DNA of 34,668 nt from a virus (lineage: Duplodnaviria; Heunggongvirae; Uroviricota; Caudoviricetes). The stretch is from positions 1-34,668 of the IMG/VR virus record IMGVR_UViG_2737471865_000001. One strand, written 5' to 3'. Both the position numbers and the translations under genes were made by a program. Within the stretch, counting starts at the first letter, position 1. Each line of letters begins with the position of its first letter. Of the stretch, positions 2,104 to 28,789 are shown piece by piece. The notes below the pieces were generated by a model. The model was given only the letters and a program-made list of their open reading frames with translations, was not told the origin of the DNA and ran no database searches.

Positions 2104-2610
2104 TTAAATTGCGTGAATAGCGTGACGAGGGAAGGGGAGAGTTACTGGTGCAAAGGGTATATCGTCGTCAAAATCCATCGGAGGTTCGTTGTGTTGTGCT
2201 GGTGATGATTGCTGCTGTGGCTTCTGTGATTGCCTGCTGGCTGCTTGTTGTTTGCTGTCGCCAATGCCGCCAAGCATTTGCATCACGCCATTAATTCCGA
2301 CATGAACCTCGGTTGTGTAACGGTCTTGCCCTGACTGGTCTTTCCACTTTCTGGTTCTCAGCATTCCCTCGAAATAAATCTGATCACCTTTTTTCACATA
2401 CTGCCCCACGACCTCAGCCAGTTTCCCGGATACAGCAACACGATGCCATTCAGTCAATTCCTTTTGCTCGCCAGTATTTTTATCTCGCCATTGTTCTGAC
2501 GTGGCTATTGTCAGGTTAGCGAACGCTGTTCCTGATGGTGAGTATCGAACTTCCGGGTCTTGTCCTACCCGACCAAGGATAATCACCTTATTTACGCCTC
2601 TGCTTGCCAT
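2104..2610 (-). CDS. ssb: single-stranded DNA-binding protein (SSB) with a C-terminal extension past the DDDIPF tip
   Basis: OB-fold N-terminus [23 protein letters not shown]...; Gly/Gln-rich linker; acidic MDFDDDIPF motif. Unlike canonical SSB, the ORF continues for 15 more codons ([15 protein letters not shown]) before TAA at 2104..2106. Confidence 0.9.
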
Positions 2611-3318
2611 TTATGCCGCCTGTTTTAGTTCGTTAACTCTGATGTTCATTACCTGAACGCATTTAGCCTGCGCATCCTCATTGCCAGCCATTAATTGCCA
2701 GTCACGCTGATAACGCTCGATGAGTTTTTTCTTGTCAGTTTCTGTTGACGCATAATCGCTGAAGTCTTTCAGGATTTGTTCGCAGTCAACCGATGGAGAT
2801 TTCTGGTTGGTATTTTCTGGTGATGGTTTGTTATCTGATGCTGGGATTGCCCATCCCGGAAGCGATGGAGGGAGCCAGTAAAATCCTGTTCCATCCTTCA
2901 GTTTTGCCCTGTGCCACCCCTGCTTTTTATCGAGAGATGTTTGTGCGAAACCTTCCTCAAGGTTATACAGATACCGACCGATTCCCCACTGAACGGCAGC
3001 GCGCTTCATTGCACCGGAACGACCACCTTTGACGGCTTCTACCTGCGTGTTTTCAGCAGCATCCCATTTGGTTACCCATTCGGAATCAATCTTTATTGAT
3101 ATGCCGCATTCAACGCCGCCGTTGTTGGGAATATCGCGGTATTCATTGCGCCATCCTGCTTTGCCGCAAACATCGTCCAGGCGCTTCATGATTGCCCGGT
3201 TCGTGACATAAGCCAGCACCATAGCCCACACCTTGCCATCGCGTGTTTTACCGCTTTGCTGTATTCGCCATTCGATATCTTCAGGGCTGAATGGCTCATC
3301 GAATTTGTTCAAATCCAT
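2611..3318 (-). CDS. single-strand annealing recombinase, Rad52-like N-terminal domain with P22 Erf-like C-terminal tail
   Basis: N-terminal region has the Rad52/Sak-like motif KRAAVQWGIGRYLYN. The C-terminal ~60 aa (ILKDFSDYASTETDKKKLIERYQRDWQLMAGNEDAQAKCVQVMNIRVNELKQAA) closely resembles the C-terminus of P22 Erf as I recall it. Located next to ssb. Confidence 0.7.
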   Translation of the reverse strand: MDLNKFDEPFSPEDIEWRIQQSGKTRDGKVWAMVLAYVTNRAIMKRLDDVCGKAGWRNEYRDIPNNGGVECGISIKIDSEWVTKWDAAENTQVEAVKGGRSGAMKRAAVQWGIGRYLYNLEEGFAQTSLDKKQGWHRAKLKDGTGFYWLPPSLPGWAIPASDNKPSPENTNQKSPSVDCEQILKDFSDYASTETDKKKLIERYQRDWQLMAGNEDAQAKCVQVMNIRVNELKQAA

Positions 3319-3405
3319 AATTCACCTCAGAATGGACATGGCCCAAGGAAATAACGCTGATTTAATACTTCAGTCTTTGCCGCATTTAAAAATACGCGAA
3401 CACCT

Positions 3406-3576
3406 TCACGATCTCCCTTCTGGCGATACATTAACGCCTGCTGCGTGTACATGCGTCTCTGTAACTTGCTCTCCTTCACTGTGGTTGCAAGTGACATGAA
3501 TATCTCCTTCGTTACCGATTAATTCTTTCATCTGACGAATGAATTCTTCGTCTGACCAGTTATCTGTAAAACTCAT
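3406..3576 (-). CDS. hypothetical small early protein (56 aa from the ATG)
   Basis: Track ORF starts at a GTG; the ATG at 3574..3576 gives MSFTDNWSDEEF... and overlaps the upstream stop as ATGA (translational coupling). Confidence 0.4.
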   Translation of the reverse strand: MSFTDNWSDEEFIRQMKELIGNEGDIHVTCNHSEGEQVTETHVHAAGVNVSPEGRS

Positions 3577-3725
3577 TTCCTGCGATACCACGGAAGGTTG
3601 ATAGCTGATTTCATCGCTTTATTTGCTTCAAGCCACATTTTTGAATCACCAATAAATCTGGCTATTACTGCTTTGTTCTGTGCAGCACGAAGCATCTGGT
3701 GATTGATGGCTATTTCATTGCGCAT
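3573..3725 (-). CDS. Kil-like small protein (50 aa), not in the ORF track
   Basis: My translation: MRNEIAINHQMLRAAQNKAVIARFIGDSKMWLEANKAMKSAINLPWYRRK. The FIGD.KM core and position (between cIII-like and the recombination genes) resemble lambda Kil from memory. GGAGG RBS. Confidence 0.4.
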   Translation of the reverse strand: MRNEIAINHQMLRAAQNKAVIARFIGDSKMWLEANKAMKSAINLPWYRRK

Positions 3726-24120: not shown

Positions 24121-25374
24121 ATGGCTAACCAATTAGCAAAAGACATTGAAATCATGTTCGAAAACTACGTTGAAGGCTTTGAGGCCGCCTGCGTAGTTTC
24201 CCGTAACGCTAAAAAATTCCGTCCCGGTGATACAGCAATGCAGAGAGCAGGTGATGTTCTGTATCGTCCGCAGCATTACCACATGAACATTGAGGAAGGC
24301 CTAGACCTCAGCGGAAAAACGCCAACAGCACTGGTTCAGCGCCTTGTTCCTTCTGTGTTCAAGGAGCCGAAAAACATTCTGTACACTCTGGATGCGCGTG
24401 AAATGCGTGACCCGGAACATAAAACTGAAGCTGGTCGAGCCGCAGGTATGCGCCTTGCTGCACAGATTGACTCTGACCTGATTTCCATGGTCACGCAGCG
24501 TGCTACTAACGTGATCACAATGGCTGACTCAACCACTGGTTCACAGGGCCGTGATTTGTGGAACTGTGCGGCAGGTATTGATGCCACCATGACGGCGATT
24601 GGTGTACCACAGGGTATCAACCGCCGCTCTTTCTGGAACCCCTTCAACTACAAAGACCTTGCTGGCGAGCTTGGTCACCGTGCCTATGCTCAGGGCGCAA
24701 CCCTGACAGCATACGAAAAAGCGCAGATCCCTCCGGTTGCTTCCTTTGATAGCTACAAGACCGATATTTCTGGTCGTGTTCCGAAGGGTACAGCAACTTC
24801 CATTACTCTGGCAGCAGCACCTGCGCACAAGGTTGAAGCGAAAGATGCTAACGATATGCCAGTGGATAACCGACAGGGGACCATTACGGTATCTGCTGAA
24901 GGTTTGCAGGTTGGCGATGCGTTTACCATCGCAGGGGTGAATTCCGTACACCAGATCACCAAAGATACCACCGGGCAGCCGCAGGTATTCCGCGTTCTGG
25001 CAGTTAGCGGAACGACAGTAACTATCTCCCCGAAAATTCTGCCGCCTGACAACGCGGATGTCGCCAGCCGTCCATATGCAAACGTTGATGCTAATGCGGC
25101 AAGTAGCGCAGCAATCACCATTCTCAACAAAAATGCCGCACCGGCTAACCTGTTCTGGGCTGATGGTTCTGTTGAACTGATGTACGGCAAACTGGCGTTC
25201 CCAACTGGTCAGGGGCCACAGGTAATGACGGCAACCACCGAGCAGGGCGCTACGCTGATCATGTCTTACGCCTTCGACCACATCAAAGGCGTAACCACTG
25301 CGCGTTTCACCACTCTGTACGGTTGCTCTGTACTGGTTCCTGAATATACGGGCATCGTTATTGCCGGGCAGTAA
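24121..25374 (+). CDS. major coat protein (P22 gp5-like)
   Basis: 417 aa with segments paralleling P22 coat (e.g. NLFWADGSVELM versus the P22 NVFWADD... region); followed by a terminator. Confidence 0.88.
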   Translation: MANQLAKDIEIMFENYVEGFEAACVVSRNAKKFRPGDTAMQRAGDVLYRPQHYHMNIEEGLDLSGKTPTALVQRLVPSVFKEPKNILYTLDAREMRDPEHKTEAGRAAGMRLAAQIDSDLISMVTQRATNVITMADSTTGSQGRDLWNCAAGIDATMTAIGVPQGINRRSFWNPFNYKDLAGELGHRAYAQGATLTAYEKAQIPPVASFDSYKTDISGRVPKGTATSITLAAAPAHKVEAKDANDMPVDNRQGTITVSAEGLQVGDAFTIAGVNSVHQITKDTTGQPQVFRVLAVSGTTVTISPKILPPDNADVASRPYANVDANAASSAAITILNKNAAPANLFWADGSVELMYGKLAFPTGQGPQVMTATTEQGATLIMSYAFDHIKGVTTARFTTLYGCSVLVPEYTGIVIAGQ

Positions 25375-25415: not shown

Positions 25416-25604
25416 ATGGCACGAACAATGCTCTATAAGCCGGGCAACATGATCACCTGTGGTCAGTTTGCTGTCGATTACATCATTGTTGATGACGAAG
25501 AAGTTAAATCTCACCTGAAAAAAGGTTGGGTAAAAACTCCTGAAGAAACCGCAACGAAGCAAAAAGTGGCTAAGGCGGAAGAAGATGGCGAAAACGAAGG
25601 GTGA
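25416..25604 (+). CDS. hypothetical small protein (62 aa)
   Basis: ATG at 25416 with GGGAGA RBS, located just after the terminator hairpin; the track's upstream start would lie inside the hairpin. Confidence 0.45.
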   Translation: MARTMLYKPGNMITCGQFAVDYIIVDDEEVKSHLKKGWVKTPEETATKQKVAKAEEDGENEG

Positions 25605-26046
25605 TCTCGTTCTTAAGGCTTTACGAAAAGCCGGGCTGTATTCCAATGCCACGTTGACAGATGCTGACCCTCAGGCAATTGAAGATGCCATTAATGACCT
25701 CGAAGACATGATGGCAGCATGGCAGGCTAAAGGTATCGAGCTTGGATATCAGTTTGCTGATACAGAAAACGGCATCATGCCGTTACCTGACGATGATTCA
25801 GGTATCCCTGCATGGGCAAATGATGGCGTCGCTTTGAAACTCGCTGTGCAAGTGTGCATGGATAACGTCATTCAGCCGTCAGACGCTCTCCTTACCGCTG
25901 CTGACAGTGCATATCAGACAATCTGTATCGCTTTAACCAAAATACCACCACTTGAGCGGCGAAATGACATGCCTCGCGGTAGTGGTAACAAAAGCGCGTT
26001 TACGTGGAATCGGTTTTACATCGAGAAAGATGATCCGAGTACGTGA
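25585..26046 (+). CDS. head-completion / portal-closure protein (P22 gp4-like)
   Basis: 153 aa; [45 protein letters not shown] parallels the P22 gp4 N-terminus from memory. Confidence 0.85.
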   Translation: [153 protein letters not shown]

Positions 26047-26055
26047 GGTGAATAA

Positions 26056-26160
26056 ATGCCGATTCAGCAACTTCCGCTTATGAAAGGTGTCGGCAAAGAC
26101 TTCCGAAATGCCGACTATATCGACTATCTGCCAGTGAATATGCTGGCAATTTTGATATAA
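26056..26160 (+). pseudogene. orphaned 5' fragment of tail gene 10 (34 codons) left upstream of the HNH insertion
   Basis: MPIQQLPLMKGVGKDFRNADYIDYLPVNMLA then ILI and stop. The first 31 residues match the gp10 N-terminus, which restarts at 26729 as MAIQQLPLMKGLGKSAVNADYIDQLPVNLLATPKE. Confidence 0.75.
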
Positions 26161-26196
26161 TAAGTACATGAAAAATCGAAACTTTAAGGAGTAGAT

Positions 26197-26781
26197 ATGC
26201 TTTCTGAGAATGCTAAAGATATACCTGGATTTGAAGGTGTTTATGCCGTAACAGAAGATGGCAGGGTGTATTCTCACTCACGTGTTGTTAAGGCTGCGCA
26301 TGGCAGCACGCAACTCAGAAAGGGGCGCTGGTTAAAGCCTAAAATAAATCAGGGAAGGGTGCTTTATAATATCGGAGCAAAATGGACTTTTGCCCATCGA
26401 ATCGTTGCAATGACATTCCTGCCAAATCCTGAAAACAAGCCTCAGGTAAATCATATTGATGGCAATCCACTCAATAATAACGTCAATAATCTTGAGTGGT
26501 GCACTCAAAGCGAAAACATCAAACATGCATACGCCACAGGATTAAAGAAACCAATCAAGTTTTTCGGAACCAAGCACCCAAAACACAAGTTGAGTGATGA
26601 CGATGTTCTTGCAATCAAGTCATCAAAAGAAAGCTTGTCAGTAATTGCGGCTAAGTACGGGATATCTAAGACCTGGGCAAGTAGGCTAAAGCGTGATGCT
26701 AACTGGGTTCATATAAAGGTTGATTCCAATGGCAATACAACAACTACCACTAATGAAGGGATTAGGGAAAAGTGCGGTTAA
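26197..26781 (+). CDS. HNH homing endonuclease (NUMOD4-like N-terminus plus HNH_3 motif)
   Basis: GFEGVYAVTEDGRVYS (NUMOD4-like) and QVNHIDGNPLNNNVNNLEWCTQSEN (HNH). AAGGAG RBS. AT-rich; its 3' end overlaps the recoded start of gene 10. Confidence 0.85.
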   Translation: MLSENAKDIPGFEGVYAVTEDGRVYSHSRVVKAAHGSTQLRKGRWLKPKINQGRVLYNIGAKWTFAHRIVAMTFLPNPENKPQVNHIDGNPLNNNVNNLEWCTQSENIKHAYATGLKKPIKFFGTKHPKHKLSDDDVLAIKSSKESLSVIAAKYGISKTWASRLKRDANWVHIKVDSNGNTTTTTNEGIREKCG

Positions 26782-28147
26782 TGCTGATTATATAGACCAA
26801 CTTCCAGTCAATCTTTTAGCTACGCCCAAGGAGGTGTTGAATTCATCGGGATATCTTCGCTCATTCCCGGGCATTGCCAAACGTTCTGATGTGAACGGTA
26901 TATCGCGCGGCGTCGAGTACAACATGGCGCAGAGTGCTGTATATCGCGTGTGTGGCGGCAAGCTGTATAAGGGCGAAAGCGAGGTCGGTGATGTTGCCGG
27001 AAGTGGTCGCGTATCAATGGCACACGGTAGGACATCACAGGCAGTAGGCGTTAACGGTCAACTGGTCGAGTATCGCTATGATGGCACGGTTAAAACCGTC
27101 TCAAACTGGCCTACAGACAGCGGATTCACGCAGTATGAGTTAGGCTCAGTCCGCGATATTACGCGCTTACGTGGGCGTTATGCGTGGTCAAAAGACGGAA
27201 CTGATTCATGGTTTATCACTGACCTTGAAGACGAATCGCATCCTGACCGCTACAGCGCACAATATCGTGCCGAGTCGCAGCCGGACGGCATCATCGGTAT
27301 CGGCACATGGCGAGACTTCATCGTCTGCTTTGGTTCATCGACGATTGAATATTTCTCCCTGACTGGTGCAACCACTGTTGGTGCCGCTTTGTATGTCGCA
27401 CAGCCATCACTGATGGTGCAAAAAGGCATCGCCGGGACTTACTGCAAAACGCCGTTTGCTGATTCTTATGCATTCATCAGCAATCCGGCAACAGGTGCGC
27501 CGTCTGTATACATCATCGGCTCCGGTCAGGTATCACCAATCGCTAGCGCGAGCATTGAGAAAATCCTCCGCTCCTACACTGCTGATGAACTGGCTGATGG
27601 TGTGATGGAATCGCTGCGATTTGATGCGCATGAGCTGCTGATTATCCATCTTCCGCGCCATGTCCTCGTATACGACGCATCTTCAAGCGCCAATGGTCCG
27701 CAATGGTGTGTATTGAAAACAGGCCTGTATGACGATGTGTACCGCGCTATCGACTTCATTTACGAAGGCAATCAGATAACGTGCGGCGATAAGCTGGAAT
27801 CGGTTACTGGCAAATTGCAGTTCGATATCAGCAGCCAGTATGGGCTTCAACAGGAACACCTGCTGTTTACTCCACTGTTCAAAGCGGATAACGCCAGAGT
27901 GTTCGACCTTGAGGTTGAATCTTCAACTGGCGTTGCGCAGTACGCTGACCGCCTGTTCCTCTCTGCAACCACTGACGGAATCAATTACGGACGTGAGCAG
28001 ATGATTGAACAGAATGAACCGTTCGTTTACGACAAACGTGTTTTGTGGAAGCGAGTCGGGCGCATCAGGAAAAATGTCGGCTTCAAATTGCGCGTTATCA
28101 CGAAGTCACCAGTAACACTATCCGGGTGTCAAATTCGTCTGGAGTAA
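26720..28147 (+). CDS. tail accessory / head-completion protein (P22 gp10-like)
   Basis: 475 aa, collinear with P22 gp10 as I recall it (SGYLRSFPGIAKRSDVNGISRGVEYN...GCQIRLE). The native start is probably the ATG at 26729 (MAIQQLP...). Confidence 0.9.
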   Translation: MIPMAIQQLPLMKGLGKSAVNADYIDQLPVNLLATPKEVLNSSGYLRSFPGIAKRSDVNGISRGVEYNMAQSAVYRVCGGKLYKGESEVGDVAGSGRVSMAHGRTSQAVGVNGQLVEYRYDGTVKTVSNWPTDSGFTQYELGSVRDITRLRGRYAWSKDGTDSWFITDLEDESHPDRYSAQYRAESQPDGIIGIGTWRDFIVCFGSSTIEYFSLTGATTVGAALYVAQPSLMVQKGIAGTYCKTPFADSYAFISNPATGAPSVYIIGSGQVSPIASASIEKILRSYTADELADGVMESLRFDAHELLIIHLPRHVLVYDASSSANGPQWCVLKTGLYDDVYRAIDFIYEGNQITCGDKLESVTGKLQFDISSQYGLQQEHLLFTPLFKADNARVFDLEVESSTGVAQYADRLFLSATTDGINYGREQMIEQNEPFVYDKRVLWKRVGRIRKNVGFKLRVITKSPVTLSGCQIRLE

Positions 28148-28150
28148 AAT

Positions 28151-28789
28151 ATGGCAGACCCGTCACTTAATAAGCCTGTCGTGGTTCAGGCTACACGCAT
28201 TGATGCATCTATTCTCCCTCGCAACATATTCAGTCAGTCTTACCTTCTGTATGTCATAAATCAGGGTACTGATGTTGGCTCCATTGCAGAAAAGGCAAAT
28301 CAGGCAGGAGGCGGTGCTTATGATGCGCAGGTCAGAAATGATGAGCAGGATGTAATTCTTGATGAGCACGAAAAAAGAATTGCAAAAACAGAAGAGGATA
28401 TTTCAGGAATAAAAGTAAAGCTTCTTGAAATAGAGAATGATGTTAATGGTCTGAAAATAAAAGTTCAGGATATCGACGGTAAGGTATCAGAGATAATCGT
28501 TGATTATGTTTCACTCAGCAGAGCAGGAACTCAAACTCTTGCCTCATCCCTTAACGTATCAGGAAGTTATTCTGTTAACGGTACAAAAGTTGTTGGCGCT
28601 CGCCAGACTGGATGGACCGCGGCAACAGGTACGGCGAATAAAGGCGTATTCAATGCTGACCTGACATTCACCGTTAGCGATACTTACACGCAATCTGAAA
28701 TCCAGACTATAGCCAATGCTCTAATTGCTGAGCGTCGGCGCACTAAGGCTTTGGAAGACGCCTTGCGTGCACATGGGTTGATTGATTAA
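28151..28789 (+). CDS. tail needle protein (P22 gp26-like)
   Basis: 212 aa; N-terminus [25 protein letters not shown] and C-terminus [22 protein letters not shown]...[13 protein letters not shown] match P22 gp26 from memory; the central coiled coil is shorter. Confidence 0.9.

Follow-up and report, generated by a model that had tools for sequence, protein, structure and literature searches.

How can a homing-endonuclease gene (HEG) come to lie within an essential viral gene without an intron or an intein to spare that gene's function? The locus that raises this question is found in the IMG/VR record IMGVR_UViG_2737471865_000001, whose whole stretch of 34,668 nucleotides is referred to here as the window. 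The window is a segment of a P22-like (Lederbergvirus-type) genome, and at its tail gene 10 (gp10) the reading frame of an HNH endonuclease stands between a short orphaned gp10 start and a full-length gp10 that begins anew. The orphan, the ribosome-binding site (RBS), the HNH open reading frame (ORF) and the overlapping gp10 restart were all part of the original prediction for this DNA, and each was recovered at the position given there. Together they probably constitute a free-standing homing cassette of the I-HmuI type, one that would occupy essential gene 10 of P22-like phages while leaving the gene functional with neither intron nor intein. The elements of the locus are the following.

26056 to 26160, plus strand: orphan gp10 5' fragment, 31 native codons followed by ILI-stop.
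26129 to 26148, plus strand: imperfect palindrome or hairpin, TGCCAGTG-AATA-TGCTGGCA, then ATTTTGATAT; terminator-like.
26149 to 26196, plus strand: AT-rich cassette leader (GC content 0.23), with the RBS AAGGAG at 26186-26191.
26197 to 26781, plus strand: predicted free-standing HNH homing-endonuclease gene, I-HmuI-like (NUMOD4 and HNH_3; 194 amino acids).
26729 to 26850, plus strand: cassette-borne diverged gp10 5' end, codons 1-41, 63% identical to native gp10 in nucleotides.
26729 to 28147, plus strand: functional full-length gp10, 472 amino acids (Pfam Phage_stabilise, E=4.6e-296, profile positions 1-469 of 469).
About 26148 to 26850, plus strand: the whole mobile cassette (leader, HNH gene and diverged gp10 5' end), a diversity trough among carriers.
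25585 to 26046, plus strand: gp4, the P22 tail accessory factor or head-tail adaptor (Pfam P22_Tail-4, E=7e-41), left neighbour of the cassette and outside it.

The restart ATG of gp10, at 26729, lies 53 nucleotides inside the 3' end of the HNH gene and in another frame; the ORF list had extended this start to a TTG at 26720. GC content is 0.23 in the spacer, 0.42 in the HNH gene, 0.41 in the restart tract and 0.51 in the remainder of gp10, against 0.475 for the window as a whole. The surrounding genes run in the order terminase, portal, scaffold, coat (24121-25374), gp4, the region of interest, gp10, the needle gene gp26 (28151-28789) and the ejection proteins.

The uninterrupted form of the gene is found in relatives. 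Phages Sf101, Sf6, CUS-3, HK620, P22 and Emek align with the flanks as two separate pieces and have no insert between them, whereas Salmonella phage UPF_BP1 has it. In the alignment the native sequence is interrupted after codon 31, between ...GAATATGCTGGC and A ATTTTGATATAATAAG, and it is the empty sites of Sf101, Sf6, HK620, P22 and Emek that set the insertion at this point. On the other side of the insert the diverged restart tract extends from 26729 to about 26850 (codon 41), and ordinary E. coli/Shigella-type gp10 follows from GGATATCTTCGC onward. Relative to the empty site, codons 1-31 of gp10 are duplicated and codons 32-41 are replaced, so the gene is not split by the endonuclease, contrary to what had been proposed. 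The HNH ORF is distinct from that of gp10 and is preceded by an RBS of its own, while gp10 starts from a codon of its own, an arrangement that makes this a free-standing HEG. A search of 25500-27500 for known intron families returned no Rfam match at E<=1, and the flanks of the HNH ORF, 48 nucleotides upstream and about 40 nucleotides downstream, likewise hold no recognisable ribozyme core.

One sharply bounded mobile unit takes in the HNH gene, the leader before it and the diverged 5' end of gp10. Among 29 aligned carriers, nucleotide diversity is 0.0059 within the cassette (26149-26850), compared with 0.045 in the 5' part of the orphan (26056-26112) and 0.088 in the body of gp10 (26851-28147). 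Segregating sites number 0-3 per 50 nucleotides inside the cassette and 7-32 outside, with jumps at about 26150 and 26856. The upstream gp4 of 36 cassettes belongs to at least four allele families (16, 9-10, 7 and 2 members), which in the 3' region of gp4 either cannot be aligned with one another or share less than 78% identity. Across these four or more backgrounds the cassette keeps 98-100% identity, and it occurs in two host genera. The orphan of UPF_BP1 is of Salmonella/Emek type to about 26113 and of cassette type beyond, which places a crossover inside the orphan. Crossovers thus fall within the orphan and just past 26850, the signature of co-conversion, and the cassette is sporadically present or absent at one fixed site among close relatives. 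A long 3' co-conversion tract in UPF_BP1 was also considered, its gp10 body being 93-98% identical to the window compared with 83-85% for P22 and Emek, and was set aside as inseparable from ordinary mosaicism. With a discrete mobile unit, empty sites and no intron detectable by Rfam, the intronless homing put forward for this locus appears to be the right frame.

Carriers of the cassette make up 18 of 5,426 complete E. coli genomes, about 915 of which match the gp4/gp10 region. A scan of IMG/VR with the conserved leader returned 49 contigs, about 26 of them with the element of the window's own clade of HNH proteins (clade A), and a scan with the restart tract returned 27 carrier contigs. Among phage records, the only carrier found is UPF_BP1, in its GenBank and RefSeq versions.

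The protein encoded by the HNH gene is predicted to be a homing endonuclease of the I-HmuI type. Pfam identifies NUMOD4 at residues 7-53 (E=1.3e-8) and HNH_3 at residues 65-107 (E=1.9e-10), both above the gathering score, and homology to I-HmuI (PDB 1U3E), which we take to be the nearest characterised relative, covers residues 7-116 (E=1e-8). The catalytic His/Asn core is conserved (VNHIDGNPLNN..NLEWCTQSEN, against VDHKDGNKDNN..NLRWVTQKIN in I-HmuI). A PHROG_59 match spans residues 1-176 and ends at nucleotide 26724, just before the gp10 restart. The body of the gene is under purifying selection, with a proportion of nonsynonymous differences (pN) of 0.083 and a proportion of synonymous differences (pS) of 0.595 relative to an 82%-identical homologue (L011). 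The last 18 codons, in contrast, are unconserved read-through into gp10: within the overlap, the HNH frame has a pN of 0.27 and a pS of 0.09, while the gp10 frame has a pN of 0.10 and a pS of 0.60. In view of the sporadic occurrence of the HNH gene in about 2% of matching genomes, its I-HmuI-type architecture and its position away from the terminase gene, we rejected a role for the protein as a packaging cofactor; P22-like phages also use headful packaging.

What, then, is the second gp10 start? The two starts (from 26056 and from 26729) share 60 of 93 nucleotides, with identical runs of at most 5 nucleotides, and among codons 1-31 there are 9 identical, 15 synonymous and 7 nonsynonymous pairs, leaving 24 of 31 amino acids the same. 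The description of this segment as a recoded copy of the gp10 5' end is therefore only partly upheld. A second copy with 15 synonymous codons is present, but 7 of its 31 amino acids differ, and although the duplication covers codons 1-31 the diverged tract continues to about codon 41. The Nei-Gojobori pS of the restart relative to the native sequence, 0.96, is probably inflated by a tiny number of synonymous sites; counting by hand gives differences at about 71% of conserved degenerate codons. This level of synonymous divergence is judged compatible with plain saturation plus a shift toward AT, which is our own estimate and not a computed null, and on the same estimate designed recoding of the restart copy is unsupported. 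In the gp10 frame the restart tract has a pN of 0.064 and a pS of 0.52, and is thus under purifying selection. This supports the restart copy as the selected, functional start of gp10, in keeping with the expectation that the target gene stays functional. Among carriers the tract is 98-100% identical up to a right bound at about 26850-26866, and the diverged segment 26729-26850 is presumed to be what confers resistance to the endonuclease.

The orphan, by comparison, is native in character. Its ORF consists of MPIQQLPLMKGVGKDFRNADYIDYLPVNMLA plus ILI-stop, with the native-derived part ending at 26147/26148, and it retains the native GAGGTG RBS. Across codons 1-31 it differs from the native gene of Sf101 at four synonymous and no nonsynonymous positions. 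The orphans of 38 cassettes comprise 12 distinct sequences, with variation specific to the background. The last 20 nucleotides of the orphan form an 8-bp hairpin that ends exactly at the insertion junction and has a terminator-like scan score; native gp10 has the same palindrome, less perfect, at the insertion point. The hairpin could be part of the recognition site or a transcription attenuator. The leader that follows contains TGATATAAT (26153-26161), and then the conserved AATCGAAAC...AAGGAG, the last element being the RBS 5 nucleotides ahead of the HNH ATG. TGATATAAT might be read as an extended -10-like motif or as a TAA-TAA stop cluster; a consensus scan upstream of the HNH gene called no promoter, and no -35 element was found there. 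In carriers among E. coli, PGAP treats the orphan as a pseudogene of gp10. In the UPF_BP1 record (L001, NC_047875.1) the orphan is left unannotated, and gp10 is annotated at 2283-3593, with a late start past the HNH stop that misses the overlapping true start about 108 nucleotides upstream.

The same layout recurs in diverged lineages. HNH homologues 82%, 72% and 69% identical to that of the window (P0003, P0004 and P0006) occupy the same site in much more divergent P22-like genomes, the coat protein in the 72% and 69% lineages being only 22-29% identical to the window's. Every lineage has a truncated native-type gp10 start ending near ...LPVNML, then TTTG(A/C)TATAATAA, then AATCGAAAC...GGAGTAGATATG, the HNH gene and an overlapping gp10 restart; the two leader motifs are thus kept in four diverged lineages. 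The restart overlaps the HNH tail by about 47-53 nucleotides throughout, and Shine-Dalgarno-like motifs (AAAGG, GAGGTG or GGAG) precede its ATG in every lineage. Where native genes encode NMLATPKE(I/V)LN, every restart copy encodes NLLATPKEVLN. Two members of these lineages, L007 and L008, are 100% identical in the HNH gene and restart copy and 99% in the gp10 body, yet only 46% in gp4 and 25% in the coat protein, which marks the left edge of the cassette as a recombination boundary there too. The combination of orphan and restart is constant in every carrier with the site covered and in all four HNH lineages, those of only 69-83% identity included. This distribution argues that the architecture of orphan, leader, HNH gene and overlapping restart is old and conserved.

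These features suggest how the cassette could move. The setting would be a cell that also holds an HNH-less relative, through co-infection or through entry of a phage into a lysogen. The HNH protein would nick or cut native gp10 near codons 20-41, and the break would be repaired from the carrier, with codons 1-31 of the recipient pairing with the carrier's orphan as a left arm and gp10 past codon 41 pairing on the right. The cassette would thereby be copied in, the former 5' end of the recipient would become the new orphan, and gp10 would be expressed from the cassette-borne start, which has its own start codon and Shine-Dalgarno-like sequence. The role proposed for the orphan is that of left homology arm. 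Divergence of the cassette copy would remove the target sequence and so provide immunity, and it would also suppress direct-repeat recombination that would otherwise delete the HNH gene. Neither the arm role nor this safeguard against pop-out had entered the original prediction. The diverged tract reaches 10 codons past the duplication, farther than repeat stability alone would need, which fits a target site spanning the junction.

Alleles in which the cassette has decayed or been lost also bear on this mechanism. The HNH gene is intact in most carriers. In E. coli ES5 (L021, 3152-3735), a 1-nucleotide deletion in an A-run corresponding to window position 26432 frameshifts it into two ORFs while gp10 remains intact, a state that we read as decay of the HEG after fixation. 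E. coli AVS0578 (L025, NZ_CP124374.1, 3501-3623) has neither HNH gene nor orphan, and its gp10 directly follows gp4. The first 57 nucleotides of this gp10 are native-type and nucleotides 60-123 are 100% restart-type; 22 native-type informative sites are followed by 22 restart-type sites, with a single switch inside the NADYID-coding stretch. Such a clean two-part chimera led us to reject AVS0578 as a natural ancestral allele. An allele of this form is what one would expect if orphan and restart recombined so that the HNH gene popped out, or if a cut was repaired from the restart copy without acquisition of the HNH gene. On either account it is a scar allele, and one that retains the presumably resistant sequence across codons 20-41. 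It is the only scar allele of this kind among the 5,426 E. coli genomes and IMG/VR. The same E. coli genomes and IMG/VR yielded no genome with the two-copy arrangement but no HNH gene; such a genome, had one turned up, would have told against the original prediction.

Some genomes hold the cassette twice. E. coli STEC308 (L026 and L027, NZ_CP091020.1) has one copy in an intact P22-like prophage and another in a decayed remnant with truncated gp4 and needle genes that adjoins a sugar-transporter pseudogene. The two HNH proteins are identical, the 3' part of gp4 plus the cassette are 99-100% identical, and the gp10 bodies are 86-98% identical. The cassette is likewise found at two places in STEC306, STEC307 and ET729.

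A sister clade of HNH proteins (clade B) is found at the other end of the gene, between gp10 and the needle gene and without an orphan, at these loci.

L005 (phage HZ41), 2524-3069: clade-B HNH gene.
L012, L014 and L016, 3501-4049: clade-B HNH gene.
L019, 5170-5703: clade-B HNH gene.
L023, 5124-5657: clade-B HNH gene.

The clade-B proteins (HZ41, P0008, P0012 and P0014) are 47-58% identical, and they share the leader AATCGAAAC..GGAGTAGATATG with clade A; some phages carry HEGs of both clades. In HZ41, the leader and first 47 codons are 86.6% identical in nucleotides to clade A (L005 2501-2663 against window 26173-26336), while the protein diverges beyond codon 47, for an overall amino acid identity of 58%. 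Such a pattern suggests that the 5' leader and the beginning of NUMOD4 have been exchanged as a module between the two HEG clades. An AT-rich C-terminal allele of gp10 of the HZ41 type, roughly 110 amino acids long, accompanies the clade-B gene at 22 of 22 loci and is found at none of 31 loci without it (84-100% identity to the HZ41 type in the former, 61-70% in the latter), although this linkage test is partly circular, since a motif beside the gp10 stop codon served to collect the loci. Clade B looks like a mirror-image arrangement with a diverged gp10 3' end. A diverged 3' end with a downstream HEG would need no duplication, and neither would a diverged 5' end with an upstream HEG if gp4 gave the left homology. 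Since gp4 is hypervariable, the orphan would supply the left arm from within the conserved target gene. It is therefore conceivable, though we would put it somewhat below an even chance, that this HNH family is a natural "home-and-rescue" drive that targets gene 10 from both ends, with clade A bringing a replacement 5' end and a portable left arm, clade B a diverged 3' end, and the orphan being functional and not debris.

Several observations weigh against homing as the explanation. No source of the restart-type 5' end came to light: distant blastn against phages returned only UPF_BP1, a protein search with the 61 N-terminal amino acids only short native-type fragments of at most 87% identity, blastn against E. 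coli genomes only the carriers and the AVS0578 chimera, and an exact-tract scan of IMG/VR only carriers. The cassette is rare, at 18 of about 915 E. coli genomes that match the gp4/gp10 region, or about 2%, and the leader scan of a species-representative genome collection gave 0 matches. I-HmuI nicks both intron-plus and intron-minus DNA. Nickases of this type can also cut their own allele, so immunity through divergence is not guaranteed. P22-like phages also recombine rampantly, and general recombination could move a passive passenger flanked by conserved gp10 as well.

In one alternative the endonuclease plays no part: a single illegitimate insertion duplicated the gp10 start, the HNH protein is inactive or irrelevant, and homologous recombination through the conserved gp10 flanks has shuffled the insert ever since. 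The rarity of the cassette and the highly mosaic virion modules of P22-like phages would both fit. A passenger would not be expected to keep its HNH ORF intact in nearly all carriers and under the purifying selection described above, nor to keep the whole arrangement while the HNH protein diverged to 69% identity. Cassette diversity about 15-fold below that of adjacent gp10 points to recent over-representation and not to neutral hitch-hiking, and the conversion-like scar of AVS0578 covers exactly the presumed target region. We consider a passenger unlikely. A splicing explanation fares far worse. In it, 26149-26821 is removed from the RNA and translation of gp10 begins at the orphan, which makes the restart copy incidental. 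Joining 26148 to 26822 would indeed be in frame, and many I-HmuI-type HNH genes reside in group I introns. The empty Rfam scan of 25500-27500 led us to reject a group I or II intron, exon duplication is not a feature of either class, and the restart copy comes with an ATG and Shine-Dalgarno sequence of its own, with purifying selection acting on its gp10 frame even in the stretch shared with the HNH gene. The AVS0578 chimera, moreover, shows restart-type sequence working as coding sequence. Splicing is thus very improbable.

A further possibility accepts the same molecular mechanism but places the benefit with the resident phage or prophage, whose HNH protein, made in a lysogen from a promoter of its own, would cut the essential gp10 of superinfecting or co-infecting relatives (marker exclusion) while the diverged 5' end protects the resident gp10. 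Among phage homing endonucleases, SegF, SegG and I-HmuI are established agents of marker exclusion. Most carriers are prophages, a conserved TGnTATAAT-like motif lies upstream of the HNH gene in clade A only, and in STEC308 the cassette of the decayed prophage remnant is still intact and matches that of the intact prophage exactly. The motif, on the other hand, has no -35 element, was not called by the scan and can be read as a stop cluster, and the rarity of the cassette argues against a strong benefit. As a primary explanation exclusion seems about as improbable as a passive passenger, but it is compatible with homing, which we continue to prefer.

How does the proposed homing cassette compare with known systems? 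Free-standing phage HEGs such as T4 SegF, SegG, SegB and mobE move by intronless homing (Belle et al. 2002 and Liu et al. 2003, via PMC12724721; PMC2330249; PMC2790892; PMC2988022). Like these, the gp10 element is a free-standing HEG among phage genes that presumably spreads by break repair with co-conversion of its flanks, its carrier presumably being protected by a diverged neighbouring target. The T4 genes lie between intact genes and nothing is duplicated, whereas the gp10 insertion is inside an ORF, after codon 31, and its cassette provides a complete new 5' end that has a start codon of its own, the former 5' end staying behind as an orphan. The Seg proteins are also GIY-YIG enzymes, while that of the window is of the I-HmuI-type HNH class. 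I-HmuI itself shares the NUMOD4-like N-terminus and HNH_3 core but is encoded inside a self-splicing group I intron, and none is detectable at gp10. Another P22-like phage, epsilon34, possibly has a further HEG inserted in the 5' part of a gene (PMC2629481).

The closest analogue is outside phages altogether. WHO elements of Torulaspora and Lachancea home into FBA1, and with each integration a gene end is replaced while the old end becomes a non-expressed fragment that serves as a recombination arm (Coughlan et al. 2020, PMC7282813); resistant and sensitive ends share about 85% nucleotide identity (PMC7282813). In mirror image, the gp10 cassette likewise joins an endonuclease gene and a presumably resistance-conferring end of an essential target gene in one unit. 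Both a diverged end and a leftover old end are thus found at gp10, but the nuclease, with NUMOD4 and HNH_3, is not homologous, so the likeness would be one of function and not of membership in the WHO family. WHO elements act at the 3' end with an intein-derived LAGLIDADG-type nuclease bearing a zinc finger, in a eukaryotic nuclear genome and through meiosis, whereas the gp10 cassette acts at the 5' end with an HNH enzyme in a phage. WHO builds tandem clusters of old elements, and no clusters of old fragments were seen at the gp10 site. WHO cleavage has been demonstrated experimentally, while cleavage by the gp10 enzyme is a prediction.

Free-standing HEGs of fungal mitochondria come with partial duplications of atp6, atp9 or cox1 (PMC7487136). 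Here too an insertion at a gene end is combined with a duplicated gene piece and a leftover pseudogene fragment, but the enzymes are GIY-YIG or LAGLIDADG, the genomes are those of organelles, mostly 3' ends are affected, and there is no comparable mapping of boundaries at the population level. Allomyces atp6 is reportedly a case of an HEG with a partial gene duplication, from work of Paquin et al. in 1994. Engineered homing drives with recoded rescue offer a parallel in design: a nuclease is aimed at an essential gene, and the drive brings a recoded, uncuttable version of the part that is disrupted, so that loss-of-function repair products are eliminated (HomeR, 10.1101/2020.08.21.261610; haplolethal-locus drives, PMC11908198). 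Those are synthetic CRISPR constructs in diploid insects, whereas the gp10 cassette encodes a natural, protein-only endonuclease in a phage, so the likeness does not extend to ancestry. I-HmuI-type HNH enzymes, free-standing phage HEGs with intronless homing and the replace-the-end mechanism of yeast are all already known; no phage example of replace-the-end homing was found in the literature searched, the coverage of which was incomplete.

Two further observations concern neighbouring genes. In the carrier prophage of E. coli 19451123, the annotation places another "HNH endonuclease signature motif containing protein" directly upstream of the coat gene but on the opposite strand (L022, 1-504, minus strand), at the point where a scaffold gene is expected. 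Within the window, the needle gene gp26 has a GC content of 0.37-0.38 and a strong positive GC skew at 28300-28600, which looks like a mosaic low-GC central segment.

For P22-like phages, the cassette would represent a third way, besides introns and inteins, for an HEG to occupy essential viral coding sequence, namely by bringing a replacement gene end. Because the rescue copy travels with the nuclease in an essential gene, most error-prone repair products would be dead phages, the same principle by which recoded-rescue drives suppress resistance alleles. Recognising the architecture also corrects annotation, as in the orphans called gp10 pseudogenes and the late gp10 start of UPF_BP1. The system is experimentally tractable, with empty-site relatives in P22, Sf6 and HK620 and carriers in UPF_BP1 and E. 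coli MS 115-1, and it could be a model of HEG population dynamics in temperate phages, of mosaicism localized to the ends of genes and of possible exclusion encoded by prophages. If the more tentative proposal of a home-and-rescue drive is true, the yeast WHO mechanism would have its first described counterpart among prokaryotes or viruses. The orphan would then let the element home into any phage regardless of its hypervariable gp4, and the drive would be a source of programmed hypervariability at the termini of gp10.

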